26,325 nucleotides of DNA from a virus (Duplodnaviria > Heunggongvirae > Uroviricota > Caudoviricetes): IMG/VR virus record IMGVR_UViG_2648501669_000017; one strand, 5' to 3'. The notes under the pieces are model-generated. The model had not been told where the DNA came from and ran no database searches. It saw nothing but the letters and a program-made list of their open reading frames with translations. A program made the position numbers and the translations under genes. Positions 804 through 21,491 of this stretch are shown piece after piece. Every line of letters starts with the position of its first letter. Position 1 is the stretch's first letter.

Positions 804-1141
804 TTTTTATGTGAGCAGAAGATATTCATCAGAAACGATTATGTAAATCATTTTATTTTGCCAACGGCCTCATTGTCGAAAGAAAAGAATACGCCCGTAT
901 TTCCTGAATGGATTGACTTTTTTATCCAACCACACTTCAGCGCACTGCGTTTAAAAAATGCCTCATTCTTATGCGGAATATCATCATTTCATCATGATGT
1001 CTTTGATGAGCGGTGAACACAATACACTTGCGCTGTCTCTTCAGGATGAATCCCCTGGTCTGGTGCCTGTGGGCTGATGTTGCAGCAAAGCTAAGGTCGC
1101 TTAAACGCTACTCAGTATTCACTTTTCAGAGGATGAAATTT

Positions 1142-4100
1142 ATGAACAGGACCAGTCCCTATTATTGTCGCCGCTCAGTACTTTCCTTATTGATATCTGC
1201 CTTGATATATGCCCCGCCCGGGATGGCTGCCTTCACTACTAATGTTATTGGTGTGGTAAACGATGAGACTGTAGATGGCAACCAAAAAGTGGATGAACGA
1301 GGTACAACAAATAACACTCATATTATCAACCATGGCCAGCAGAATGTTCATGGCGGGGTATCTAATGGAAGTCTTATTGAATCTGGTGGATATCAAGATA
1401 TAGGAAGTCATAACAATTTTGTGGGGCAGGCTAATAATACAACCATTAACGGTGGCAGACAGTCAATTCATGACGGGGGTATTTCCACAGGTACGACAAT
1501 CGAGAGTGGCAATCAGGACGTTTATAAAGGGGGTATCAGCAATGGAACGACAATTAAGGGCGGTGCTTCACGCGTAGAGGGAGGGAGTGCGAATGGAATA
1601 CTCATTGATGGTGGTAGCCAGATAGTAAAAGTTCAAGGGCATGCTGATGGTACAACGATAAATAAGTCTGGCTCTCAGGACGTAGTACAAGGAAGTCTGG
1701 CAACGAACACAACCATAAATGGTGGTCGACAGTATGTTGAACAGAGCACAGTAGAAACAACAACCATTAAAAATGGCGGTGAGCAAAGAGTATATGAGAG
1801 CCGTGCGCTGGACACGACGATTGAAGGCGGAACTCAGTCTCTGAATAGTAAGTCAACGGCAAAAAATACGCATATCTATTCTGGTGGCACGCAAATTGTT
1901 GATAACACCAGCACCTCGGATGTTATTGAAGTTTATTCTGGTGGCGTGCTTGATGTTAGTGGTGGTACGGCAACAAATGTTACCCAGCACGATGGTGCAA
2001 TTTTAAAAACTAACACTAACGGTACGACGGTGAGCGGTACGAATAGTGAAGGTGCATTCTCCATCCACAATCACGTGGCAGACAATGTGTTGCTGGAAAA
2101 CGGTGGTCATTTAGACATAAACGCATATGGTTCGGCAAACAAGACGATTATTAAAGATAAAGGAACAATGTCAGTTTTAACCAATGCTAAAGCTGATGCG
2201 ACCCGAATAGATAATGGCGGGGTTATGGATGTTGCAGGAAACGCGACAAATACCATAATTAATGGTGGCACACAGAATATTAATAATTATGGCATAGCCA
2301 CAGGCACCAATATCAACAGCGGAACGCAAAATATCAAAAGCGGCGGGAAAGCTGACACAACAATTATATCCTCCGGGAGCCGGCAGGTTGTTGAGAAAGA
2401 TGGTACGGCAATTGGCAGCAATATTAGCGCCGGAGGCTCGCTGATTGTCTATACCGGCGGTATTGCACATGGGGTTAACCAGGAGACGGGCAGTGCTTTA
2501 GTTGCCAACACGGGTGCAGGGACTGATATCGAAGGATACAACAAGCTCTCTCACTTCACTATTACCGGAGGGGAGGCTAATTATGTTGTGCTGGAAAATA
2601 CCGGCGAACTGACGGTAGTGGCTAAAACCTCGGCGAAAAATACTACCATTGATACTGGCGGTAAGCTGATTGTCCAGAAGGAGGCTAAAACAGATAGCAC
2701 CAGACTTAATAATGGCGGCGTTCTGGAGGTTCAGGACGGTGGTGAGGCTAAGCATGTTGAGCAACAATCCGGCGGCGCATTAATTGCTTCCACGACCTCC
2801 GGAACACTTATCGAAGGAACCAACAGTTATGGTGATGCTTTCTACATCAGGAATTCAGAAGCTAAAAATGTAGTGCTGGAAAACGCTGGCTCATTAACAG
2901 TCGTCACTGGTTCCCGCGCAGTTGACACGATTATTAATGCCAACGGCAAAATGGATGTTTATGGAAAAGATGTTGGCACTGTACTCAATAGTGCTGGCAC
3001 CCAAACAATATATGCCAGTGCCACTTCTGATAAAGCAAATATCAAAGGTGGCAAGCAAACGGTATATGGTTTAGCCACTGAAGCAAATATCGAAAGTGGT
3101 GAACAAATTGTTGATGGTGGGTCAACAGAGAAAACACACATCAATGGTGGCACGCAAACCGTTCAGAATTATGGTAAGGCAATCAATACCGATATCGTCT
3201 CTGGCCTACAACAAATTATGGCAAACGGGACAGCGGAAGGTTCCATTATTAATGGGGGTTCACAGGTAGTTAATGAGGGCGGTCTGGCTGAAAACTCGGT
3301 GCTTAATGACGGCGGCACACTCGATGTGCGGGAGAAAGGCAGCGCAACGGGGATACAGCAGAGTAGCCAGGGCGCTTTGGTTGCAACCACCAGGGCGACG
3401 CGGGTCACAGGAACACGCGCGGATGGCGTCGCGTTCAGCATCGAGCAGGGTGCGGCGAACAATATCCTGCTGGCAAATGGCGGCGTGTTAACCGTGGAGT
3501 CAGACACCTCTTCTGACAAAACACAGGTCAATATGGGCGGACGGGAGATCGTCAAAACAAAAGCCACTGCGACAGGCACGACGCTCACCGGCGGTGAACA
3601 AATTGTCGAGGGTGTGGCGAATGAGACAACAATTAACGACGGCGGAATACAAACAGTTTCAGCTAACGGAGAGGCAATAAAAACAAAGATCAATGAAGGC
3701 GGTACGCTGACAGTCAACGATAATGGCAAAGCGACAGATATCGTCCAGAACAGCGGTGCCGCTCTCCAGACGAGCACGGCTAACGGTATTGAAATCAGCG
3801 GTACTCACCAGTACGGTACTTTTTCCATTTCCGGCAATTTAGCGACCAATATGTTGCTGGAAAATGGCGGTAATTTATTGGTATTAGCAGGTACCGAAGC
3901 TCGCGACTCCACGGTTGGCAAGGGTGGGGCAATGCAAAACCTGGGTCAGGACTCCGCCACAAAGGTTAACTCTGGCGGGCAATATACCCTTGGGCGGTCA
4001 AAAGATGAGTTTCAGGCTCTGGCCCGGGCAGAAGATCTCCAGGTCGCTGGCGGTACGGCAATCGTCTACGCAGGTACGCTGGCGGATGCATCGGTCAGTG

Positions 4101-5722
4101 GCGCGACAGGAAGCCTGTCGTTAATGACGCCACGGGATAATGTTACGCCAGTTAAACTCGAAGGGGCGGTCCGGATTACCGATAGCGCGACATTGACTCT
4201 GGGAAATGGCGTCGATACCACGCTTGCCGACCTGACGGCTGCCAGCCGGGGCAGTGTCTGGCTTAACAGCAATAATTCCTGTGCAGGTACCAGCAACTGC
4301 GAATATAGAGTAAACAGTTTGCTACTCAACGACGGTGATGTTTATTTGTCAGCACAAACAGCAGCGCCTGCCACAACTAACGGTATCTACAATACGCTGA
4401 CAACCAATGAACTTTCCGGTAGCGGTAATTTCTACCTGCATACCAACGTTGCAGGCTCCCGGGGCGATCAACTGGTCGTCAACAACAACGCCACTGGTAA
4501 TTTTAAAATCTTTGTTCAGGATACCGGCGTCAGCCCACAGTCTGACGACGCGATGACGCTGGTGAAAACAGGGGGAGGGGATGCTTCGTTTACGCTGGGC
4601 AATACCGGCGGTTTCGTTGATCTTGGGACCTATGAGTATGTCCTGAAAAGTGACGGCAACAGCAACTGGAACCTGACCAATGATGTCAAACCCAACCCGG
4701 ACCCCATCCCAAATCCAAAGCCAGACCCAAAACCCGATCCAAAGCCAGACCCAAATCCAAAACCAGACCCTACTCCCGATCCAACGCCGACACCCGTTCC
4801 GGAGAAACGCATTACGCCTTCTACGGCAGCCGTACTCAATATGGCAGCAACATTACCGTTGGTATTTGATGCTGAGCTAAACAGTATTCGCGAGCGGTTG
4901 AACATAATGAAAGCGAGTCCACACAACAATAATGTCTGGGGGGCGACGTATAACACCCGTAATAATGTCACCACCGATGCGGGTGCCGGGTTTGAGCAGA
5001 CGCTGACCGGAATGACAGTGGGGATCGACAGCCGTAATGATATTCCTGAAGGAATTACCACGCTAGGCGCTTTTATGGGCTATTCCCATTCACATATCGG
5101 TTTTGATCGCGGAGGACATGGCAGTGTGGGCAGTTATTCTCTGGGCGGCTATGCCAGTTGGGAACATGAAAGTGGTTTCTATCTGGACGGTGTCGTGAAG
5201 CTGAACCGTTTTAAAAGTAACGTAGCAGGTAAAATGAGCAGCGGTGGAGCCGCCAATGGCAGTTACCACAGCAACGGGCTGGGCGGTCACATTGAAACCG
5301 GGATGCGATTTACCGATGGTAACTGGAACCTGACGCCGTATGCATCGTTAACGGGGTTCACCGCTGATAACCCCGAATATCATTTATCCAATGGCATGAA
5401 ATCGAAATCAGTCGATACCCGCAGTATATATCGTGAACTGGGCGCAACGCTGAGTTACAACATGCGTCTGGGGAACGGTATGGAAGTTGAGCCGTGGCTG
5501 AAGGCGGCTGTGCGCAAAGAATTTGTCGATGATAACCGGGTGAAAGTGAATAGTGACGGTAATTTCGTCAATTATTTGTCGGGCAGACGTGGAATATACC
5601 AGGCAGGTATTAAAGCCTCATTCAGCAGTACGTTAAGCGGGCATCTTGGGGTGGGGTATAGCCATAGTGCCGGTGTGGAATCCCCGTGGAACGCGGTAGC
5701 TGGTGTGAACTGGTCGTTCTGA
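1142..5722 (+). CDS. ypjA: Adhesin-like autotransporter (type Va): signal peptide, long repetitive beta-helical passenger domain, Pro-rich linker, C-terminal beta-barrel translocator
   Basis: ORF 1013-5722; ATG at 1142 sits 9 nt after AGAGGA and gives MNRTSPYYCRRSVLSLLISALIYAPPGMAAF (signal-peptide-like), total 1526 aa; iterative ~19-aa GG-x-Q/T-rich passenger repeats; PNPKPDPKPDP linker; C-terminal aromatic-rich barrel ending ...NWSF. Symbol assigned from length plus the adjacent invertase remnant and ssrA-att context, as recalled for E. coli K-12 ypjA. Confidence 0.8.
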   Translation: MNRTSPYYCRRSVLSLLISALIYAPPGMAAFTTNVIGVVNDETVDGNQKVDERGTTNNTHIINHGQQNVHGGVSNGSLIESGGYQDIGSHNNFVGQANNTTINGGRQSIHDGGISTGTTIESGNQDVYKGGISNGTTIKGGASRVEGGSANGILIDGGSQIVKVQGHADGTTINKSGSQDVVQGSLATNTTINGGRQYVEQSTVETTTIKNGGEQRVYESRALDTTIEGGTQSLNSKSTAKNTHIYSGGTQIVDNTSTSDVIEVYSGGVLDVSGGTATNVTQHDGAILKTNTNGTTVSGTNSEGAFSIHNHVADNVLLENGGHLDINAYGSANKTIIKDKGTMSVLTNAKADATRIDNGGVMDVAGNATNTIINGGTQNINNYGIATGTNINSGTQNIKSGGKADTTIISSGSRQVVEKDGTAIGSNISAGGSLIVYTGGIAHGVNQETGSALVANTGAGTDIEGYNKLSHFTITGGEANYVVLENTGELTVVAKTSAKNTTIDTGGKLIVQKEAKTDSTRLNNGGVLEVQDGGEAKHVEQQSGGALIASTTSGTLIEGTNSYGDAFYIRNSEAKNVVLENAGSLTVVTGSRAVDTIINANGKMDVYGKDVGTVLNSAGTQTIYASATSDKANIKGGKQTVYGLATEANIESGEQIVDGGSTEKTHINGGTQTVQNYGKAINTDIVSGLQQIMANGTAEGSIINGGSQVVNEGGLAENSVLNDGGTLDVREKGSATGIQQSSQGALVATTRATRVTGTRADGVAFSIEQGAANNILLANGGVLTVESDTSSDKTQVNMGGREIVKTKATATGTTLTGGEQIVEGVANETTINDGGIQTVSANGEAIKTKINEGGTLTVNDNGKATDIVQNSGAALQTSTANGIEISGTHQYGTFSISGNLATNMLLENGGNLLVLAGTEARDSTVGKGGAMQNLGQDSATKVNSGGQYTLGRSKDEFQALARAEDLQVAGGTAIVYAGTLADASVSGATGSLSLMTPRDNVTPVKLEGAVRITDSATLTLGNGVDTTLADLTAASRGSVWLNSNNSCAGTSNCEYRVNSLLLNDGDVYLSAQTAAPATTNGIYNTLTTNELSGSGNFYLHTNVAGSRGDQLVVNNNATGNFKIFVQDTGVSPQSDDAMTLVKTGGGDASFTLGNTGGFVDLGTYEYVLKSDGNSNWNLTNDVKPNPDPIPNPKPDPKPDPKPDPNPKPDPTPDPTPTPVPEKRITPSTAAVLNMAATLPLVFDAELNSIRERLNIMKASPHNNNVWGATYNTRNNVTTDAGAGFEQTLTGMTVGIDSRNDIPEGITTLGAFMGYSHSHIGFDRGGHGSVGSYSLGGYASWEHESGFYLDGVVKLNRFKSNVAGKMSSGGAANGSYHSNGLGGHIETGMRFTDGNWNLTPYASLTGFTADNPEYHLSNGMKSKSVDTRSIYRELGATLSYNMRLGNGMEVEPWLKAAVRKEFVDDNRVKVNSDGNFVNYLSGRRGIYQAGIKASFSSTLSGHLGVGYSHSAGVESPWNAVAGVNWSF
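4687..4800 (+). repeat. Proline-rich linker encoded by an imperfect tandem DNA repeat (CCAAAGCCAGACCCAAA-type units) inside the autotransporter gene
   Basis: Direct reading: ...cccaacccggaccccatcccaaatccaaagccagacccaaaacccgatccaaagccagacccaaatccaaaaccagaccc...; protein PNPDPIPNPKPDPKPDPKPDPNPKPDPTPDPTPTPVP. Confidence 0.8.
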
Positions 5723-5733
5723 CCATCAACGAA

Positions 5734-5755
5734 AAAGCCCACATCTGTGGGCTTT
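5734..5755 (+). terminator. Hairpin immediately after the autotransporter stop codon (putative terminator, weak U-tract)
   Basis: AAAGCCCAC-atct-GTGGGCTTT perfect 9-bp stem with 4-nt loop, 12 nt downstream of the TGA at 5720-5722. Confidence 0.5.
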
Positions 5756-5883
5756 CATGTTACCAGGAGCCGCGGCTCCTTTGCGTATCCTTTTATGTCT
5801 CCTCACCGTCTGGTCGGTGTTTTGCTGAGACTTCTAACTTCCTGTTTTTGTTGGTGTTGTCCTTACACCGTCCAATCATGATT

Positions 5884-5910
5884 GGTGGGCTGGCGGGAGT
5901 TGAACCCGCG
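5884..5910 (-). other. ssrA (tmRNA) 3'-end fragment, i.e. an att-core-like copy; not a complete RNA gene
   Basis: Minus strand reads CGCGGGTTCAACTCCCGCCAGCCCACCA, matching the T-arm/acceptor 3' end of E. coli tmRNA as I recall it (GCGGGTTCAACTCCCGCCAGCTCCACCA) apart from one missing T; sequence 5' of it on the minus strand has no tmRNA/tRNA character. A perfect 14-bp palindrome CCAATCATGATTGG (5872-5885) abuts it. Confidence 0.6.
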
Positions 5911-6052
5911 TATGATTGAATTTATGTGTATGAAAAATAAAGTTTAATTTCTTCCTGCAATCTTTGCGTATCAAAAACGTGCACTTCGTCATTATTTTAT
6001 AGTAATTTATTTTGCTCATTTTTGACTAGACAGATTTGGCTGAGGTGTCGCC

Positions 6053-6976
6053 ATGGAACTGTTGATTTCCCCAAAAAGATTGTGCCTTTATAATGATTCT
6101 GATCGCCGTGTTACAGCTAAGTTTTTGAACTCAGTTGATAACACCCTTGCGAGAGCATCTGGACAAGTGGTTATAGACTTTTCGACAGTAGAATATGCAG
6201 GTGCTGCAGCTAGCGTAAGGTTGTTTGCTATCATCAGTAGGGCTTATTTTATGGCATTCGGCACAAGTAGTCTTCGATTTATTTGGCCGAAAAAAGAAAA
6301 TAATCCGTATGGGCATCGATATATTGTTGGGACGGGGTTATCGATTGCTCTAATGGCAAATACAGTTGATAAATTAGATGTTCTTACTAAGGAACGCAGG
6401 TACTTTCAGTCTGCTGTGGAACCGTATGAACATTGGGCTAAAACGATGGAATTTATTGATTCAAAAGCAATTCTCACATTTGAGCAATATCTTTTGGTCT
6501 CCTCAGCCCTTAGTGAGGCAATGCTGAATGTTTCATATCATGCATATGAACATCCAGACTTTGCTGGTGCTACAGAGCATATGCAAGGGAAACGATGGTG
6601 GCAGAGTTGTTGGTACAACCCTGACACAGACAAGGTTGTCTTTATTATTTATGATCTTGGGCTTGGCATACATAAATCATTTACTTCAGCCTCTCCGTTG
6701 TTTACTGGGTATGACGACGTGACATCTGTGTCAACAGCCCTGACAGGAGGACAGTCCAGATATGTTAACGCTGGACGTGGTAATGGTTCTGAGGATATAA
6801 AGAGACCTATAGGGTCTGGCTGTGCGAATTCAGAATCACTTTTGGTGTTCACAGGGAATGTTAAGTACAGCTATAATTCAAGAAATGAGGTTCCCAAATG
6901 CGAGTGGATACCTGAGTACATGCCGGGAACATTGATTGAATGGTCATTAGTTCCGAGGAGAGGAGAAGATGGTTAA
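6053..6976 (+). CDS. Hypothetical protein with STAS-like N-terminal region and GHKL/HATPase_c-like ATP-binding C-terminal region (anti-sigma-factor-kinase-like)
   Basis: ATG 6053 preceded by TGAGGTG; 307 aa; by-eye motifs EAMLNVSYHA (N-box E-x3-N-x3-HA, aa 155-164), DLGLG (G1, aa 201-205), GRGNGS (G2, aa 241-246), GSG (aa 254-256); N-terminal QVVIDFSTVEYAGAAASVRLF resembles STAS/anti-sigma-antagonist folds. Confidence 0.6.
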   Translation: MELLISPKRLCLYNDSDRRVTAKFLNSVDNTLARASGQVVIDFSTVEYAGAAASVRLFAIISRAYFMAFGTSSLRFIWPKKENNPYGHRYIVGTGLSIALMANTVDKLDVLTKERRYFQSAVEPYEHWAKTMEFIDSKAILTFEQYLLVSSALSEAMLNVSYHAYEHPDFAGATEHMQGKRWWQSCWYNPDTDKVVFIIYDLGLGIHKSFTSASPLFTGYDDVTSVSTALTGGQSRYVNAGRGNGSEDIKRPIGSGCANSESLLVFTGNVKYSYNSRNEVPKCEWIPEYMPGTLIEWSLVPRRGEDG

Positions 6977-7310
6977 CATCGTCATAGCAAGGGATTTCTC
7001 AAAGATGCCATTTGGAAGGTTCAAGTCTGACAGCCCGAACAGTGCTGAGCGTTTTCGTAAGGACTTTCTGGTTCCTGCATTAAAATCTGGTGAGCGTGAG
7101 GTTGTCGTAGATTTTACGGGTATAAATCATGGGATTGGTTCTTCGTTTCTAGAGGAGGCCTTTGGAGGGCTTGTTAGGAAGGAAGGTGTACCTAAGGCTG
7201 ACATTAAGGCAAAACTAATTATAAAAAGTGATTTGCCGTTCTATAAAGATCAAATTTTTAGATATATTGAAATGGCTAATCCAGAAAGGAAGCCTTTCCA
7301 AAGGAGTTGA
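6969..7310 (+). CDS. Small STAS-like protein (DUF4325-like), candidate partner of the upstream ATPase
   Basis: ATG 6969 overlaps the upstream stop (6974-6976) and follows AGGAGAGGAGAAG; 113 aa; EVVVDFTGINHGIGSSFLEEAF is paralogous in pattern to the N-terminal segment of ORF 6053-6976. Confidence 0.55.
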   Translation: MVNIVIARDFSKMPFGRFKSDSPNSAERFRKDFLVPALKSGEREVVVDFTGINHGIGSSFLEEAFGGLVRKEGVPKADIKAKLIIKSDLPFYKDQIFRYIEMANPERKPFQRS

Positions 7311-7311
7311 T

Positions 7312-7941
7312 TTGAACACCGTTGATATTAAGGACACCCTTGCAGGGGTGTCCACTTACGCATGGATGTTTAGTGTTGTGAGTATTATCTTAGTGTTTAT
7401 TGGATGGTTTGTTACTTACAATAATTCACTGAAGATTGCTACTCGCTCTGAATCTAAATCGATTATAGATGCGATTGCTAAAATTTTAAACGAAATATCG
7501 GATTTGTCTCTGGATTACTGGGTTAATAAGTCAACACCACCAGATTCTAATCCATTTAAGAAAAAAAGTTTTAAGAACTCTAATGGATTGCATACTCAGT
7601 CGGCGAAAATATATTTAACGGCAATTCATGGAAAAGCCATACAAATAAATAAATACATTAATCTTCTCGATGAGAGGGGGATAAAAATAACAATTTCGTA
7701 TTTTTCTAATATTATAGATGAAGCTACTATGGAATGTGAGAAATCATATTGTTTTAATAAGTCATATAGGGTTTTTCGCGCTCAGAATGTATCTAGTGCT
7801 TGTATCGATTTCATAATGCATTTATATGATTCTTTTCAAAAAAATCATCCTCCACGTAAGCCTGTATATGTATTGAAAACATTAAAACAATTGGATTGTT
7901 ACTTGGATAAATGGCATAATGAATTATGTGGGCGGCAATAA
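7312..7941 (+). CDS. Hypothetical membrane-anchored protein, AT-rich; start uncertain (TTG 7312 after AAGGAG, or ATG 7366)
   Basis: ORF 7228-7941; the GTG at 7228 would overlap the upstream gene by 83 nt; AAGGAG (7301-7306) + 5 nt + TTG 7312 sits directly after the upstream stop; single N-terminal hydrophobic helix MFSVVSIILVFIGWFVTY; Lys/Asn-rich, visibly low GC. Confidence 0.5.
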   Translation: MNTVDIKDTLAGVSTYAWMFSVVSIILVFIGWFVTYNNSLKIATRSESKSIIDAIAKILNEISDLSLDYWVNKSTPPDSNPFKKKSFKNSNGLHTQSAKIYLTAIHGKAIQINKYINLLDERGIKITISYFSNIIDEATMECEKSYCFNKSYRVFRAQNVSSACIDFIMHLYDSFQKNHPPRKPVYVLKTLKQLDCYLDKWHNELCGRQ

Positions 7942-7949
7942 ATGCCGCC
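7931..7949. terminator. Hairpin between the convergent 3' ends of ORF 7312-7941 and int (putative bidirectional terminator)
   Basis: GGCGGCA-ataaa-TGCCGCC; stop codons of both flanking genes lie within or beside it. Confidence 0.45.
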
Positions 7950-7953
7950 ATAA

Positions 7954-9120
7954 TCATTGTATAATGTATTTGATGGAGCTTTTTCCGTCGTATTCTTTGA
8001 GATATCGACCATAGTGCCTGAAAAGCATCTCCGGCCCTTTATGCCCCATTTGAGCTGCAAGCCAAAACAGGTTTGCTCCTCGGCTGATATGGCTGGTGGC
8101 GAATGTATGCCTGGTTTGATATGGGTTTCTGTAACGAATACCTGCTTTTCGCAATGTTGGCACCCATGCTTTTTTCCTAATTGCATCAGCACTTGCCCAA
8201 GGCTTATTGGTCTTTGGATCTTCAAAGACAGTAGTATCCTTCATGAATGTAAATGGCTTCTGATTTATCAGCGCCAACATTGCCTCTTCTGTCAGTTCAA
8301 CTTTCCGAGTACCTGCTTTTGTCTTTGTCCCTTTGATAACACCGACAACACTTGCGCTCTGGACATAGGCAGTTTTTCCAACAAAGTCGATATCACGCCA
8401 TCGAAGGGCACATAATTCAGAACTACGCAGGCCTGTATGTATAGCGAACCGGAACAGATTTTCCCATTGTTTGTTTCCGGCTGCTGCTAGTAATGCATCA
8501 ACTTCTGCTGGTGATAGCGGATCAACTACGTAGCTGCTTTCTGCTTCTGACTTATCACTTTGGTAGCGCGAAGCTGTTACTAACGATACGGGGTTAATTT
8601 GAAGTACCCCATCGGTCACGGCTTCATCAAGTGCTGACCGCAGGAAAGATAACTGGTTGCGAATTGTTTTTAAGGTCGTTTTCTGATTTTGAATCCACGC
8701 TTTCAGGGTTGCTGGTGTTAATTCACTTGCAGGGCAAATGTGAAGTGAGGCTAACGCACTACGGCATTTTTTATAGCCACCAATCGTAGAGGGTGAAAGT
8801 TTTCTTGTTTCGCAGATTTCAAGATATTCGTCCAGGTACATCTTTACCGTTTTGCCTGCAGCAGCATTACCAAAAATTTTCAAACGAGCAGAACGGGGAA
8901 AATATTCTGCATAAATGAATGTTCCCCTTTCGATCTTATTATGGATTTCGCCGAGTGTACGCTCGGCGTATTTAATGTTCTTTGGTGTTACTTCCAGATT
9001 GGAAAGCGGCTCACGACATCTAACTCCTTTGTAGGTGAAAGTTATATTGATCGTTTCTCCCTGGCGGTGTTTCCTGATTGTTACGCCGCGCGGTAGTTTG
9101 AGCAGTTTTGTCTGGCCCAT
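7954..9120 (-). CDS. int: Phage integrase, tyrosine recombinase family with N-terminal arm-binding domain
   Basis: 388 aa; ATG at 9120 after GTGAGGT; C-terminal catalytic signature ...TRHTFATSHISRGANLFWLAAQMGHKGPEMLFRHYGRY (R...H-x-x-R...Y); N-terminal LPRGVTIRKHRQGETINITFTYKGVRCRE arm-type domain. Confidence 0.9.
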   Translation of the reverse strand: MGQTKLLKLPRGVTIRKHRQGETINITFTYKGVRCREPLSNLEVTPKNIKYAERTLGEIHNKIERGTFIYAEYFPRSARLKIFGNAAAGKTVKMYLDEYLEICETRKLSPSTIGGYKKCRSALASLHICPASELTPATLKAWIQNQKTTLKTIRNQLSFLRSALDEAVTDGVLQINPVSLVTASRYQSDKSEAESSYVVDPLSPAEVDALLAAAGNKQWENLFRFAIHTGLRSSELCALRWRDIDFVGKTAYVQSASVVGVIKGTKTKAGTRKVELTEEAMLALINQKPFTFMKDTTVFEDPKTNKPWASADAIRKKAWVPTLRKAGIRYRNPYQTRHTFATSHISRGANLFWLAAQMGHKGPEMLFRHYGRYLKEYDGKSSIKYIIQ

Positions 9121-9299
9121 TTTGCAACCTCACTAAGATCAATCCACCTCTCCTTAACGCCTTCAACCTTTAAAACCTGAACACCTTCACGCCAAACACC
9201 GCGCTGTACACGTTTGTTTATTGCTTCAGGAGTTTCGCCAGTTTCTTTGCAATAAGTTGAGATAGGAACACAATCGAGGTTCAGCATACGTTTCTCCAT
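9084..9299 (-). CDS. xis: Excisionase-like protein (Xis), overlapping the int start
   Basis: MEKRMLNLDCVPISTYCKETGETPEAINKRVQRGVWREGVQVLKVEGVKERWIDLSEVAKW; small winged-helix excisionase pattern; 3' end overlaps int 5' end by ~37 nt as in lambda. Confidence 0.65.
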
Positions 9300-9328
9300 T
9301 ATCCCGTCTGCACACGGGAGCAACATTA

Positions 9329-10195
9329 TTAACGAATAGTGTCGTTACTTTGAAGTACAGCAAATGCCATTAATACTTCTAAAGTATATCTTCTATAAAA
9401 TTTAACAAAACCAACATAGAAAACATAGACGAAGAAAAAGCTAAGCATTATTGAAAGTAAACTATAAAGATAATCACTATGAGTACATAATCGATAAATA
9501 AAGGTTGGAACTGATACCCAAAATGAAATTATAAAGATTAAACATATGTTTCTGCAAAAACCATATAATGCAACATAGTTTTGAATTTTTGTTTGATGTT
9601 GTTTTGAAAACTCATAAACATAATGATATGCCAATCTGAAGAGATCATCATCAAGTCCGTTTTTATCTTGTAATAATTGGCGATTTGTTATGAACTTTTT
9701 CTCATAACCTTCTTTGATCATTAACCATGTTGTATTAGCTAAATGAAATGGTAGAGATTGAGAATAACATAGTTTTTGTGTTGTAAAATCCCATAGTATT
9801 ATTGGGCATAATACGCATTTGATTATGCGATTCTTTATTTTTGTTTTTTTATCAGCGCTTCTCTCATCGCATGATGGGCTACAAATGCTTTCTGAGGTAT
9901 CTATCAATTTTTTAAATAGATATTTGGAAGGATATCCTAATTCTTTATTCATGTGTTTTTCGATAAAAAATGCTGACGTGATAGAAATAAAATGTCCAGC
10001 TATATAAGATATAATAACTATTGAAGCGTAGTTCAAAATGCCAAAGATTTGACTTTGACCTCTGAGCAATTCACTTAAGTCAATAACAATATCTAGATCG
10101 AATGTCAAACCACAGAAATACATTAATAGGATAAAAAAACCACCTGGTATTAAATATCCAAGAAAGTCATAGAATGAGAATGGATTTTGATTCAT
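9329..10195 (-). CDS. Hypothetical polytopic membrane protein (about 4 TM helices, two at each end), very AT-rich cargo gene
   Basis: ORF 9329-10219; the first in-frame ATG is at 10195 with GGAGAG 6 nt upstream; hydrophobic segments FLGYLIPGGFFILLMYFCGLTF, IFGILNYASIVIISYIAGHFISI, ICLIFIISFWVSVPTFIY, LYSLLSIMLSFFFVYVFYVGFV; no motif recognised. Confidence 0.6.
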   Translation of the reverse strand: MNQNPFSFYDFLGYLIPGGFFILLMYFCGLTFDLDIVIDLSELLRGQSQIFGILNYASIVIISYIAGHFISITSAFFIEKHMNKELGYPSKYLFKKLIDTSESICSPSCDERSADKKTKIKNRIIKCVLCPIILWDFTTQKLCYSQSLPFHLANTTWLMIKEGYEKKFITNRQLLQDKNGLDDDLFRLAYHYVYEFSKQHQTKIQNYVALYGFCRNICLIFIISFWVSVPTFIYRLCTHSDYLYSLLSIMLSFFFVYVFYVGFVKFYRRYTLEVLMAFAVLQSNDTIR

Positions 10196-10303
10196 TGTTG
10201 CTCTCCAATAATTGTTCAATTTGTAATATAACCTATATCTATATGTTAATAAATTACTTATATGTTCTTTTATGGCAGAGTTTGAATTCGTACGTGCTGA
10301 TTT

Positions 10304-19478: not shown

Positions 19479-19495
19479 TTTTGTGGAGGAAGTTG

Positions 19496-19867
19496 ATGCG
19501 TGATATTCAAATGGTTCTTGAACGTTGGGGGGCATGGGCGGCTAATAATCATGAGGATGTGACCTGGTCGTCCATTGCTGCCGGTTTTAAGGGATTACTT
19601 CCTTCAAAAGTAAAATCCCGTCCGCAATGTTGTGACGATGACGCGATGATCATTTGCGGGTGCATGGCCCGTCTGAAAAAGAACAACAGCGATTTGCACG
19701 ATTTATTAGTAGATTATTATGTAGGTGGTATGACGTTTATGGCGCTTGCCCGTAAACATGGGCGTTCTGATTGCTGGGTTGGGCGCTTATTGCAAAAGGC
19801 AGAAGGCATCATTGAAGGTATGTTGATAATGTTAGAAATAGAATTGGAAATGGACTCAAATATCTAG
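19496..19867 (+). CDS. Q: Late-gene antiterminator Q (QuuD / phage-82-type Q family)
   Basis: ATG 19496 with GGAGGA 5 nt upstream (track start 19481 is TTG); [34 protein letters not shown]...[17 protein letters not shown] matches my recollection of DLP12 QuuD; sits just before the late region. Confidence 0.8.
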
Positions 19868-20039: not shown

Positions 20040-21491
20040 TTATTTTATTTTGCTTACTATATTTGTAATAAGTGGGTCAAATTTCTCATCAATAATTTCA
20101 ATATATTTTTTTATTGCTAAAGTTCTAATTACTTCCTCCTCACATTCTGCTTCTTTAGCAATTGCTTGAGTGTAATTGTGATGATCACTAATCCCTTCCT
20201 TTTTTATTAACCAATCAAAATCAATATGATACTCCTTGTAGAGGAATTTTTTTACTTCCTCATGTTGAAATACTTCTACTTCTGGTGGCCTATTGCCAGG
20301 GAAAGAAAATAAATCATCTTTAATGTTTTCTCCAACATCTGCATCTCTTACGGCAATAACATTAAGGCCTGCTTTCTTGAATACCTCGACTGCTTGTCGG
20401 ACTGCATCTTTATCTCCAATATCAGTGATTTGAATGGATTTAAGAATGTCTCTCCGCTTTGCTCTAATTACTTCACTAAGTAAAACTTTTGCAAACTGGT
20501 CTTCTACGCAAATATGCAGCCCTTTAAACTGCCCATCAGACAGTATTGATCTCACATGAGTTGTTGAAATTCCATCTTTGATATAGACACCAGTCTGATC
20601 TCTAATAAGTAATTTTCGTGCATCAGGAGGTAAAGCATTTAATATCACACTTGAGTGTGTTGATAATATTATTTGATGTTTTCTACGTTGACATACTTCC
20701 ATTAAATATTTTGCAAATTCATACTGTGCGCTTTCATGAAGAGATGTTTCTGGTTCTTCTAGTACGAAAAGACTTTGCTCTGGAGCTGTTTCAAGCATAT
20801 CAACCGTATAAAGAACTCTTCCTTCGCCAAACCCCATGTTATTTTCAGAATAAGAATACCCAAGTCTTTCAACAATACCAATTTCTGAACGACGTGCTCT
20901 ATGAGAAATTCCTTGGAATGCGATATCATCATATGGATGACCTATTATTTTTGCCATCTTCAATATTACTGAATGGTCGACGCTTCTTCTCTCTGTTAAA
21001 TCAAAGTCTTTACCGCCATAAACACTTATATCTCTACGTTCTACTTTTGGAATATAGACAGTAAAACCAATGTAAAAACAGTGTCTTTCTGGTTGTCTTT
21101 TATATCCAGACCAAGAAGACTTTATGCGAGTGACAGTCACATCTTGTGTTTTCGTTGAATCATTTGTTTCATATTTATAAATGACACTGGCGTCATTATC
21201 GAAAGGGGCTGGATCGGCTTTAGATACAGGGAAAAAATCTTTAATATATAATCTCTTATATTCACGGGCTGTAACTGGTTTTTTATATGCGCATATTGCT
21301 AACTGCCCAAGAGTGCTTTTCCCAGCGCCGTTTAGCCCTGATATTGCAGTTACCGGAAAATTTATATTTAATGTTAGTTTTTTTATTCCTCGAAATCCAT
21401 TTATCTCTAGACTTTTAATTACGGAGCCAAAGTTTGAGTATCTATTTTTATCAAAGTACATGCATTTTAGTATATTTTTTATGTCTGACAT
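20040..21491 (-). CDS. OLD-family-like ATPase-nuclease: N-terminal ABC-type ATPase + C-terminal TOPRIM-like domain (candidate anti-phage defence protein)
   Basis: 483 aa; ATG 21491 with AGGAAAG 8 nt upstream; Walker A GLNGAGKST (aa 52-60), signature-like SENNMGFGEG (aa 214-223), Walker B LFVLEEPE (aa 241-248), H-loop LSTHS (aa 276-280); TOPRIM-like acidic motifs HICVEDQ (E330) and IAVRDADVGEN (D383/D385); visibly AT-rich; transcribed against the late operon. Confidence 0.75.
   Translation of the reverse strand: MSDIKNILKCMYFDKNRYSNFGSVIKSLEINGFRGIKKLTLNINFPVTAISGLNGAGKSTLGQLAICAYKKPVTAREYKRLYIKDFFPVSKADPAPFDNDASVIYKYETNDSTKTQDVTVTRIKSSWSGYKRQPERHCFYIGFTVYIPKVERRDISVYGGKDFDLTERRSVDHSVILKMAKIIGHPYDDIAFQGISHRARRSEIGIVERLGYSYSENNMGFGEGRVLYTVDMLETAPEQSLFVLEEPETSLHESAQYEFAKYLMEVCQRRKHQIILSTHSSVILNALPPDARKLLIRDQTGVYIKDGISTTHVRSILSDGQFKGLHICVEDQFAKVLLSEVIRAKRRDILKSIQITDIGDKDAVRQAVEVFKKAGLNVIAVRDADVGENIKDDLFSFPGNRPPEVEVFQHEEVKKFLYKEYHIDFDWLIKKEGISDHHNYTQAIAKEAECEEEVIRTLAIKKYIEIIDEKFDPLITNIVSKIK

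Follow-up and report, generated by a model that had tools for sequence, protein, structure and literature searches.

Introduction

The paradigm of Int and attP is said to stem from Landy's work on lambda, and the sublocations at which elements integrate in tRNA and tmRNA genes were reportedly treated by Williams in 2002 and 2003 ('Traffic at the tmRNA gene'). Excision of CP4-57, an element in the tmRNA gene (ssrA) of Escherichia coli K-12, was reportedly the subject of a study by Wang in 2009.

Excision of CP4-57 yields ssrAΔT357, an allele that is inactive in trans-translation, and ribosome rescue has been shown for this element to switch to ArfA thereafter (PMC10107115). The outcome is the same in Shewanella, where ssrA is inactivated on prophage excision (PMC5148205); the ssrA prophage CP4So of Shewanella oneidensis has an attR copy lacking the U of a G·U wobble, and its excision gives SsrA-delU (ISME J 2016, PMC5148205). 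For Escherichia phage LLS, integration in ssrA was deduced by the authors from 29 bp of identity, and the IntA of CP4-57 was described as only 17% identical to LLS Int (PMC12315714).

Here we analyzed a stretch of viral DNA of 26,325 nucleotides (the window, in its full length), in which an earlier note made from the letters alone had pointed to a copy of the ssrA 3' end some 2 kb away from an integrase gene. The feature is of a known kind and is for the most part a textbook att junction, with two modest extras, namely that this lambdoid attR holds a ΔT357 remnant, and that ssrA is followed by a 150-nt trailer which is conserved and structured.

Results

Window positions 5872-5910 read ccaatcatgattggtgggctggcgggagttgaacccgcg, and on the minus strand 5883-5910 read CGCGGGTTCAACTCCCGCCAGCCCACCA, as compared to the 3' terminus of K-12 ssrA, which is ...GGACGCGGGTTCAACTCCCGCCAGCTCCACCA. 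The tmRNA tail with one base absent that the earlier note had described on the minus strand is thus present, and identity to ssrA reaches 5911, one base beyond what had been recognized. The copy (ACGCGGG...CCACCA) is 29 nt long and equals the final 30 nt of ssrA less one T. This match is far beyond chance, and the identical junction was found again in other genomes. The remark that no tmRNA body lies upstream of the copy was confirmed by both programs used: ARAGORN reported zero tRNAs and zero tmRNAs over the window, and Rfam gave no match on the window at the gathering score. At a permissive Rfam threshold, positions 186-374 of the tmRNA model, that is the 3' part only, matched 5883-6060 on the minus strand with 16 bits versus a gathering score of 47 (E=1.4e-4), and the match was flagged as cut at its 5' end. 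A functional, intact or decayed tmRNA gene at 5883-5911 is ruled out by the ARAGORN result and by this sub-threshold, 3'-only match, and the fragment is no part of an intact ssrA.

The surroundings of the copy in other genomes located the boundary. In 10 complete genomes identity to the window begins at 5883/5884 and continues through the cassette into int; homology starts exactly at the CCA end, beside at least four different left flanks. The left flank is glaH in strain 2A and a P4-type integrase island in CFSAN064035, and IMG/VR contigs supplied a fourth left flank as well as one contig (L036, only 26 kb long) with the exact junction of the window. At this junction the P arm of a phage lies on one side and a K-12-type flank with ypjA on the other, the body of the gene being absent. 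The best coverage of the window by any complete E. coli genome is 72%, and both ends of the prophage were read in relatives only. In these relatives (CFSAN064035, AB104 and UMNF18) the second copy of the core sits at the far prophage end, within a full ssrA. In CFSAN064035 a lambdoid prophage of about 46 kb spans the distance from the full ssrA to the copy, and AB104 and UMNF18 have the same arrangement with ypjA at attR; the Ints of the relatives with both ends are the same as, or 96-97% identical to, that of the window. The UMNF18 prophage is heavily decayed.

The empty site in related strains was searched for with a reconstruction of ssrA, the 160-bp flank and ypjA (650 nt, required to be contiguous), and turned up in 1386 of the 5426 complete E. 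coli genomes, in many of them at 100% identity to the reconstruction. A free or circular attP with this P arm was found neither in the phage collection nor among the IMG/VR viral contigs. An attP as a single contiguous stretch is seen in the free phage LLS, in the order flank homologue, tmRNA pseudogene, cargo gene 31 and int. Taken together, the boundaries in relatives, both prophage ends and the empty sites support the suggestion that the copy is an att core left by integration into ssrA, and we are highly confident that 5883-5911 is the attR core of a lambdoid prophage that inserted at the 3' end of the gene. The prophage boundary then falls at window 5883/5912, and ypjA and the 160-bp flank are chromosome. 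The prophage itself may be defective. Coordinates are given in Table 1.

Table 1. Features of the attR junction and its surroundings in the window.
Feature	Position	Strand	Remarks
ypjA, adhesin-like autotransporter YpjA/EhaD, resident chromosomal gene left of the junction	1013..5722	+	1569-aa ORF; RefSeq annotation of matches
160-bp block after the ssrA CCA end ('flankP'); resident B' arm, K-12 allele	5723..5882	-	Seen in K-12 and empty sites
Bidirectional terminator hairpin AAAGCCCACA..TGTGGGCTTT	5732..5757		Ends ypjA on + and the ssrA trailer on -
16-bp palindrome AGGAGCCGCGGCTCCT within the flank, conserved hairpin	5765..5780		Palindrome search
CTTTGCGTATC, candidate arm-type Int-binding site, B'/P' arm	5779..5789	+	Inferred; 11-mer direct repeat with 5962-5972
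14-bp palindrome CCAATCATGATTGG	5872..5885		11 bp of resident trailer plus TGG, complementing the CCA end
ssrA 3'-end copy, att core at attR	5883..5911	-	T-arm, 3' acceptor strand and CCA, with ΔT357
T-loop TTCAACT, candidate 7-bp overlap (crossover)	5898..5904	-	Lies between inverted T-stem arms (5893-5897, 5905-5909)
P arm of the phage att site	5912..6052		100% common to CFSAN064035 and 2A from the core onward
CTTTGCGTATC, candidate arm-type Int-binding site, P arm	5962..5972	+	Inferred from the repeat and the GCGTATC motif
Cargo gene 1, 307 aa, putative	6053..6976	+	phrog_3364; annotated hypothetical in relatives
Cargo gene 2, 113 aa, STAS-like DUF4325	6969..7310	+	Pfam PF14213, E=8e-15
Cargo gene 3, 209 aa, putative	7312..7941	+	phrog_30059, PHROG profile match
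Tyrosine integrase with N-terminal arm-binding domain, transcribed toward att	7954..9120	-	Pfam PF12167, PF00589, PF13102
Excisionase	9081..9326	-	phrog_2917 'excisionase', E=8e-45

In K-12, the stretch that separates psaA from ypjA is identical to the 160-bp flank. The flank follows the full ssrA in the 1386 empty sites, in phage LLS and in 17 species of Enterobacterales, and its homologues form the P' arm of ssrA-targeting phages. Several parts of the flank are structured: the terminator is the last hairpin in the RNA fold and is kept as a hairpin despite sequence changes in the alignment, and the 16-bp palindrome is helix 5 of the trailer alignment, with 99% of cells paired. Within the flank, GGAGCCGCGGCTCC is conserved in LLS, phiNP and Ayreon. 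Rfam gave no RNA family for the flank at E values up to 10. This conserved and structured 150-nt trailer, common to hosts and ssrA phages, may have a function within the tmRNA precursor and be something that such phages have to bring along.

The occurrence of the flank in phages raises the question of its origin. It could be argued that the junction is P-core-P', with 5723-5882 as the fossil P' arm of an earlier ssrA phage and ypjA and pinH as its leftovers, as homologues of the flank are phage-borne in LLS and phiNP and at the attL ends of prophages, a candidate arm-type motif is located at -117 as in the P' arms of phages, and an invertase pseudogene (pinH, 'recombinase family protein') lies just past ypjA. 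We consider this unlikely: the flank directly follows ssrA in 1386 element-free genomes, in E. whittamii it is followed by apparent lhgO and gabD (judged from the N-terminal sequences of the ORFs only), and the window has the chromosomal K-12 allele, unlike the phage allele at the attL of AB104 and UMNF18. Moreover, such a history would alter the deep past only and not the present-day junction. That the flank is today a phage P' arm and the junction attP-like, as the match to LLS had raised, was rejected because 1386 sites are empty and because attL and attR differ in their allele; as the deep origin of the flank, a phage P' arm is possible.

The perfect 14-bp palindrome overlapping the CCA end is where the earlier note had placed it; its proposed role as a binding site for a recombinase or host factor is unsupported. 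Three perfect 14-bp palindromes were found in the window versus 1.65 expected, which is at the level of chance, and CCAATCATGATTGG belongs to the resident trailer and is present at empty sites. A function as a binding site for Int, Xis or a host factor at the att boundary could be read from its position adjoining the core, from its conservation in E. coli, Klebsiella, Leclercia and phage LLS, and from the fact that two of the three 14-bp palindromes of the window are inside the 160-bp flank. However, at this position the sequence is unrelated in PhiR12 and in phiNP with its 92% identical Int, the palindrome is likewise missing from the remaining trailers of this type, and nothing related is found there in the flanks of CP4-57 and the P4-type island. 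The helix shows no covariation and no compensatory change, and is broken in 5 of 21 sequences. Core sites of the lambda type flank an overlap of 6-8 bp, unlike this palindrome, which has no spacer. A binding function is therefore very improbable, and the palindrome is resident chromosomal sequence, real but unremarkable.

Int has the domains Arm-DNA-bind_2 and Phage_integrase, and is 92% identical to the Int of phiNP by tblastn (91.5% by global alignment) and 86% identical to that of LLS (85.6% by global alignment). The P arm, which probably also carries the promoter of the cassette, is unrelated in sequence to the P arms that go with near-identical Ints, with the exception of one motif, GCGTATC, which recurs in the otherwise unrelated P arm of UMNF18. 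This short motif and one 11-mer repeat suggest the two candidate arm-type sites of Table 1. In addition, a TTTRCG motif is found at -116/-117 in all five att variants compared, and in PhiR12 it changes together in both arms.

To the right of the T-stem, phage and host remain identical over about 180 bp, which narrows the crossover no further than the interval from the 5' T-stem to about +49 of the trailer. Its left limit comes from AB104: at attR of this strain the P side retains a mismatch located in the 5' T-stem, placing the crossover 3' of this stem strand. From the geometry of the inverted stem arms, strand exchange would most likely take place across the 7-nt T-loop.

The distance between the copy and int amounts to 2043 bp, int ending at 7954 as had been reported. 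To account for the three genes in this interval, the earlier note had offered either phage cargo between attP and int or a prophage in tandem with the remnant of an older ssrA island. The former is correct: homology of the cassette together with int and xis starts at the CCA end beside at least four varied left flanks, and we therefore regard the 2 kb as phage cargo, which travels with int and the core. Phages LLS, phiNP and PhiR12 likewise carry cargo in this slot, and a gene also separates att from int in the P2-like prophage of KL53. The tandem idea fails for the cassette and holds across the junction, where the ΔT357 end and the flank are the same as the attR remnant of CP4-57 in K-12.

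In its full form, with the fragment as the scar of an older, unrelated ssrA island that owns the cassette and with the prophage ending beside int, the tandem explanation is highly unlikely. Arrays in ssrA do exist, as in CFSAN064035 where the lambdoid prophage is followed by a P4-type integrase island, and the ΔT357 end and flank are indeed an old remnant common to the CP4-57 attR. Against this, the cassette lies on the phage side of the core and is joined to int at 98.7-100% identity across four contexts, all three of its proteins belong to phage protein families, related phages also have cargo between att and int, and no second att-like repeat is found near 7950.

The product of cargo gene 2 also matches phrog_5816, across the C-terminal part of the profile only. 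PADLOC gave no match for cargo proteins 1 and 2 and only a weak '2TM effector' match for protein 3 (E=0.007), and NCBIfam gave no match to a defence system in the cassette; neither search thus recognized a known defence system, there being no match beyond that at E=0.007. The slot contains DarT-NADAR in UMNF18, two hypothetical genes in AB104 and EcE.CRE.COL, an AAA ATPase in phiNP and three small genes in PhiR12, and these contents differ although UMNF18, EcE.CRE.COL and AB104 have Ints that are 95.6-97.4% identical to that of the window. Evidently, the cassette occupies a variable, swap-prone slot between attP and int, the content of which changes among prophages that are nearly the same in other respects. 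Since relatives hold DarT-NADAR in the slot, the cassette may reasonably be regarded as a candidate anti-phage or lysogenic-conversion module.

The one-base gap relative to E. coli ssrA is genuine and no slip of memory. Given that K-12 ssrA ends as shown above, the absent base is the T of CAGC-T-CC, between window 5888 and 5889. By comparison with the description in PMC10107115 this is ΔT357, the loss of the U of the acceptor-stem G·U pair. The identical deletion is present at the attR of CP4-57 in K-12 (psaA), together with the identical 160-bp flank, it adjoins the same flank at an attR in 17 natural isolates, and the IMG/VR contig also carries it. Across three element types ΔT357 tracks the ypjA flank whatever element is inserted, for example lambdoid in UMNF18 and P2-like in KL53 and NMBU-W12E19. 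In UMNF18 the working ssrA has T357 and attR has ΔT357, and full-length ssrA with ΔT357 was found in the lab strain DTU-1 only and in 0 natural genomes. While mutations can build up in a copy that is not selected as a gene, it is extremely improbable that a sequencing error, or a private decay mutation lacking both history and consequence, accounts for the missing base, as the identical deletion recurs in K-12 psaA, the 17 isolates and the IMG/VR contig, and the loss hits exactly the U of the G·U identity pair, like the published CP4-57 and CP4So.

Discussion

The displaced end at this junction is the ΔT357 allele that is also found at the CP4-57 attR of K-12, and the copy is therefore a hybrid, in which a T-arm from the phage side is fused to an old chromosomal remnant. 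As a heterobivalent tyrosine recombinase, Int would recombine attP with ssrA. The attP would consist of the P arm (5912 to about 6052, followed by the cargo slot and int/xis), a core that duplicates the final 30 nt of ssrA (T-arm, 3' acceptor strand and CCA), and a P' arm homologous to the approximately 150-bp trailer that follows the gene. After integration, the working ssrA would end in phage-supplied sequence at the far end, outside the window, and the displaced chromosomal 3' end would remain between the P arm and ypjA.

Two routes could lead to the present state. The phage may have integrated into a host with ssrAΔT357 and thereby repaired the gene, or integration may have occurred in tandem with a CP4-57-like island that was subsequently lost. 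If the crossover at excision takes place 5' of T357, ΔT357 would be brought into ssrA and the tmRNA would become inactive.

The missing base ties this junction to the published inactivation of tmRNA by ssrAΔT357. In a more speculative joint reading, which we hold to be possible but less likely than not, the ΔT357 remnant acts as a conditional 'lock' on trans-translation and the trailer is a functional part of the tmRNA precursor. According to this reading, the working ssrA relies on a 3' end from the phage, and precise excision by Int and Xis would install ΔT357 and shift ribosome rescue to ArfA; the lysogen itself may have arisen as integration of the phage repaired an ssrAΔT357 host. If the lock is real, E. 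coli lineages with the remnant must always keep some element in ssrA. Such obligate occupancy fits the counts, because ΔT357 was seen at an attR in 17 natural genomes and within a full-length ssrA in no natural genome. Should the crossover made by the lambdoid Int lie 5' of T357, the switch is not peculiar to CP4-57, and would instead be a property of the chromosomal remnant that is passed to whichever element occupies ssrA.

Among described systems, Escherichia phage LLS (PQ299149; Genome Res 2025, PMC12315714) resembles the locus in being lambdoid with an Int 86% identical, in its ssrA 3'-end copy of about 29 bp (annotated as tmRNA pseudogene/attP), behind which comes a homologue of the 160-bp flank with the palindrome in it, and in having one cargo gene in the slot between attP and int. 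It differs in its P arm and cargo, a single 271-aa gene as compared to three genes in the window, and in that its similarity to tmRNA reaches further into the body of ssrA. Its copy also has T357, and LLS was isolated as a free phage, whereas the window shows an integrated junction. Citrobacter phage phiNP (OR565852) has the closest phage Int (92% identical) and the same order of xis, int, cargo (AAA ATPase), att and flank homologue, but is myovirus-like with another host, and its trailer starts with CTTTAGACAGG and is thus without the palindrome.

The attR of CP4-57 in K-12, the psaA pseudogene, shares the ΔT357 remnant with the window, its 160-bp flank is identical as far as ypjA, and the lab strain DTU-1, with ΔT357 in ssrA, shows the state after CP4-57 excision. 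CP4-57 is by contrast a P4-type island with int at the ssrA-proximal end, and its core comprises only 15 nt from the end of ssrA (14 given the deletion), whereas the copy in the window, which takes in the T-arm, corresponds to 30 nt (29 given the deletion). CP4So likewise has an attR copy without the U of the G·U pair. It belongs to another genus and is P4-like, and its excision was demonstrated experimentally, whereas the prophage of the window is known from sequence alone.

In a wider sense the locus follows the lambda Int/attP paradigm, with the arm-binding domain of Int and with int beside xis and transcribed toward att, as well as that of integration into tRNA genes, in which the core is part of a stem-loop whose loop has 7 nt and the phage supplies a replacement 3' end. 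It departs from both in the roughly 2 kb of cargo between int and the P arm, and in the homology of the phage and host sites, which extends about 150 bp past the gene.

The ssrA copy marks the end of a prophage

The minus strand of window 5883-5911 reads ACGCGGGTTCAACTCCCGCCAGCCCACCA (window 5872-5910, ccaatcatgattggtgggctggcgggagttgaacccgcg), which corresponds to the last 30 nt of ssrA, the tmRNA gene (3' terminus in K-12, ...GGACGCGGGTTCAACTCCCGCCAGCTCCACCA), less one T, with the gap between 5888 and 5889. The copy includes the T-arm, the 3' acceptor strand and the CCA. A tmRNA gene body at this position was ruled out, as ARAGORN called neither a tRNA nor a tmRNA anywhere in the window and Rfam gave no match there at gathering score; at a permissive threshold the tmRNA model matched with its 3' part only (5883-6060, minus strand, 16 bits, E=1.4e-4, flagged 5'-cut). 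The layout of the region is given in the table.

Features of the window around the ssrA copy and in the prophage
Feature	Coordinates	Strand	Remarks
ypjA	1013-5722	+	left of the copy
Trailer block (flankP)	5723-5882		160 bp, non-coding; between ypjA and the copy
Candidate arm-type repeat, first	5779-5789		direct repeat
Palindrome	5872-5885		perfect, 14 bp
ssrA copy (core)	5883-5911	-	3'-end fragment
Non-coding stretch			140 bp; right of the copy, precedes the cassette
Candidate arm-type repeat, second	5962-5972		direct repeat
Three-gene cassette	6053-7941	+	right of the copy, before int
Genes of cargo proteins 1 and 2	6053-7310	+	protein 1 (307 aa) directly upstream of protein 2; 8-nt overlap
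int	7954-9120	-	arm-binding domain PF12167 and tyrosine-recombinase catalytic domain
Excisionase (xis)	9081-9326	-	phrog_2917; adjoins int
296-aa protein	9329-10219	-	adjoins xis
Antiterminator Q	19481-19867
483-aa ATPase	20040-21491	-	AAA_15/AAA_21; opposite strand to neighbours

When window 5000-9000 was compared by megablast with 5426 complete E. coli genomes, the cassette and int were found at 98.7-100% identity in 10 genomes. In nine of these the match starts at 5883 or 5884, i.e. at the CCA end, and the left neighbour of the boundary is glaH in strain 2A and an island with a P4-type integrase in CFSAN064035; the alignments place the switch point between the unlike flanks at the CCA. IMG/VR was also scanned for the P arm (5912 to 6052) together with the core. 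Four contigs matched. The left flank is of the CFSAN type in two of them and of a fourth, distinct kind in another, and contig L036 has the exact window junction, missing base included. Since identity starts at the CCA while the left flanks vary, the cassette is part of the int/core element and not of the ypjA side.

The far end of the prophage falls outside the window, and coverage of the window by any complete E. coli genome is at most 72%. The second core copy that the earlier note expected at the far end was found inside full ssrA in the relatives CFSAN064035, AB104 and UMNF18. In CFSAN064035, ~46 kb separate the copy from a full 363-nt ssrA, and a complete lambdoid prophage occupies this interval (int, xis, repressor, replication, Q, lysis, terminase, head, tail and tail fibre genes, and also a type II restriction-modification pair), and the ssrA 3' end is a direct repeat common to both prophage ends. 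AB104 and UMNF18 show the same layout, with ypjA at the int end. The empty site anticipated in related strains was likewise recovered: when an unoccupied site was predicted by joining the last 250 nt of K-12 ssrA to flankP and the ypjA 3' end, 1386 of the 5426 genomes had this 650-nt sequence uninterrupted, many of them with 100% identity along its full length. Taken together, the variable flanks, the two ends in relatives and the empty sites support the reading of the copy as the att core of a prophage in ssrA; the junction is the attR of a lambdoid prophage, with cargo between attP and int.

The ssrA locus of CFSAN064035 is a tandem array, in which the lambdoid prophage is followed by a second core copy and then by the P4-type-integrase island (L002 6606-7835, L003). 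At the ssrA-proximal end of this prophage lie genes for a type II restriction endonuclease and a cytosine methyltransferase and a GIY-YIG gene, which are also present in AB104 and UMNF18.

The missing base belongs to the chromosomal remnant

The single-base gap in the copy, which the earlier note had pointed out, is genuine, as the deletion recurs in K-12 psaA, the annotated 14-nt ssrA remnant at the attR of CP4-57. The 160 bp that come next in K-12, up to ypjA, are identical to the window flank. Strain 2A and CFSAN064035, with the same type of phage, retain the T in their copies. Because the window combines the K-12-type deletion and flank with a phage whose copies in 2A and CFSAN064035 retain the T, its copy is, on this comparison, a hybrid of a phage-side T-arm joined to a K-12-type remnant.

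A stringent search found the flank with the deletion-bearing core in 18 of the 5426 genomes, 17 of them natural isolates with the copy lacking gene annotation. Among the natural isolates inspected, the deletion copy is always an attR-type fragment beside ypjA, and the element next to it is lambdoid in UMNF18 and P2-like in KL53 and NMBU-W12E19; the ETEC17xx strains match the lambdoid genes of the window. In UMNF18 the working ssrA has T357 followed by a phage-allele trailer, and the attR has the deletion followed by the K-12-allele trailer. All natural empty sites have T357. A full-length ssrA with ΔT357 was found, among the 5426 complete genomes, only in the 18th genome, the lab strain DTU-1 (362 nt, L029 3044-3405), with no element at the site. 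As the deletion accompanies the ypjA flank whatever the element, it belongs, in the genomes compared, to the chromosomal remnant, which retains it under the various occupants of ssrA.

The P2-like prophages of KL53 (L030 6001-8260) and NMBU-W12E19 (L031 6001-8236) end with the ΔT357 copy and T-arm beside ypjA. Both encode integrase, CI, CII, Fil and ogr, and each has its own ~1-kb gene between att and int.

In agreement with this, published work shows that excision of CP4-57 deletes T357, the U of the G·U pair in the tmRNA acceptor stem, and that tmRNAΔU357 has no trans-translation activity (PMC10107115); the same deletion event is described for Shewanella CP4So (PMC5148205). Two histories could have led to the window junction. 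The phage may have integrated into a host carrying ssrAΔT357, by which the gene would have been repaired, or a CP4-57-like island may have been lost after a tandem integration.

Crossover and candidate arm-type sites

The 5' T-stem is where identity to ssrA starts. With GCGGG TTCAACT CCCGC, the T-arm has a 7-nt loop between inverted repeats, as is usual for the sites of integrases that target tRNA-type genes. In AB104 a 5' T-stem mismatch remains on the phage side at attR and the first trailer allele difference is at ~+49, which suggests that the crossover falls between these two points; both sides of T357 fit. If the crossover is in the T-loop, prophage excision would install ΔT357 in ssrA.

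The sequence CTTTGCGTATC is repeated on both sides of the core, and we estimate the chance expectation of an 11-mer repeat within 400 bp at ~0.02. All five att variants compared have a TTTRCG motif at -116/-117, counted from the T-loop, and four of them have it at +67 to +79 as well; both copies in PhiR12 read GCATTTTACGTGCAT. Apart from GCGTATC, the P arms of the window and of UMNF18 have nothing in common. These are candidate arm-type sites that would fit an Int with an arm-binding domain.

A conserved trailer and the palindrome

FlankP follows the ssrA 3' end in 17 Enterobacterales species representatives, in 12 of them after a full tmRNA gene, and homologues are also found at prophage attL ends, in empty E. 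coli sites and in phage LLS. Erwinia and Mixta have a phiNP-type trailer and then a phiNP-like hicB-type ORF, and in E. whittamii the trailer precedes apparent lhgO and gabD (identified from ORF N-terminal sequences only). In the ssrA sense (5723-5882, minus strand) the trailer RNA is predicted to fold into five hairpins, the last a terminator (z=-3.5). Across 21 aligned sequences, pairing holds in 92% of cells and six pairs have two-sided changes; the covariation score was reached by none of 500 shuffles, the sequences being related and few. G·U occurs in 21 cells in this sense vs 3 A·C cells (G·U on the opposite strand). The trailer has no match to an Rfam family. These data are suggestive of a tmRNA precursor with a structured 3' trailer that ssrA-targeting phages bring along. 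Phage Ayreon (L007 ~3001-3107) has a trailer homologue without an adjoining ssrA core, beside a different integrase.

The palindrome CCAATCATGATTGG is unremarkable as such, since the window contains three perfect 14-bp palindromes vs 1.65 expected. It is composed of 11 bases of the resident-trailer start and three that complement the CCA, and is present in empty sites, LLS and many Enterobacteriaceae. It is absent from phiNP, whose Int is closer to that of the window than the LLS Int is, from PhiR12 and from the trailers supplied by CP4-57 and the P4-type island; its helix is disrupted in 5 of the 21 sequences, and compensatory changes are lacking. A role in recombination, as the binding site for a recombinase or host factor proposed earlier, finds no support.

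Other prophage genes

The 483-aa ATPase, between Q and the methylase/lysis genes, matches the PADLOC candidate defence family HEC-04 (E=4e-47). It is a probable second defence or accessory gene of the prophage. The 296-aa protein belongs to no Pfam family; its PADLOC match, to Csx27, is weak (E=2.6e-6).

The cargo slot and related phages

With the Ints of UMNF18, EcE.CRE.COL and AB104, the window Int shares 95.6-97.4% identity overall and 99-100% over the first 80 residues (arm-binding domain), yet the DNA from core to int in these genomes is unrelated to that of the window from the first post-core base. The slot contains DarT and a NADAR antitoxin in UMNF18 and two hypothetical genes in AB104 and EcE.CRE.COL. 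The cassette proteins fall in phage families phrog_3364, phrog_5816 and phrog_30059, none with an assigned function; the phrog_5816 match covers the C-terminal part of the profile only, with a STAS-like DUF4325 domain. None of the three matches a known defence system in PADLOC or NCBIfam. From these comparisons we treat the cassette as phage cargo in a swap-prone slot. Cargo protein 2 (DUF4325, 113 aa) aligns only to positions 340-438 of the 441-aa profile phrog_5816, and proteins 1 and 2 may be a split form of one longer phage protein.

By tblastn, the window Int is 92% identical to that of Citrobacter phage phiNP, 86% to that of Escherichia phage LLS and 68% to that of PhiR12 phages. LLS was isolated as a free phage. 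A 'tmRNA pseudogene' and an attP are annotated in its record at a distance of ~900 bp from int, and gene 31 lies in the interval; its integration into ssrA was deduced by its authors from 29 bp of identity (PMC12315714). The int-att interval holds an AAA ATPase gene in phiNP and three small genes in PhiR12. As all three carry genes there, cargo between attP and int, the first alternative of the earlier note, is normal for this phage group. CP4-57 and Stx phages are other known users of ssrA as integration site. An attR in ssrA is an ordinary feature of known type; what the window adds, modestly, is ΔT357 at a lambdoid attR, together with the conserved trailer.
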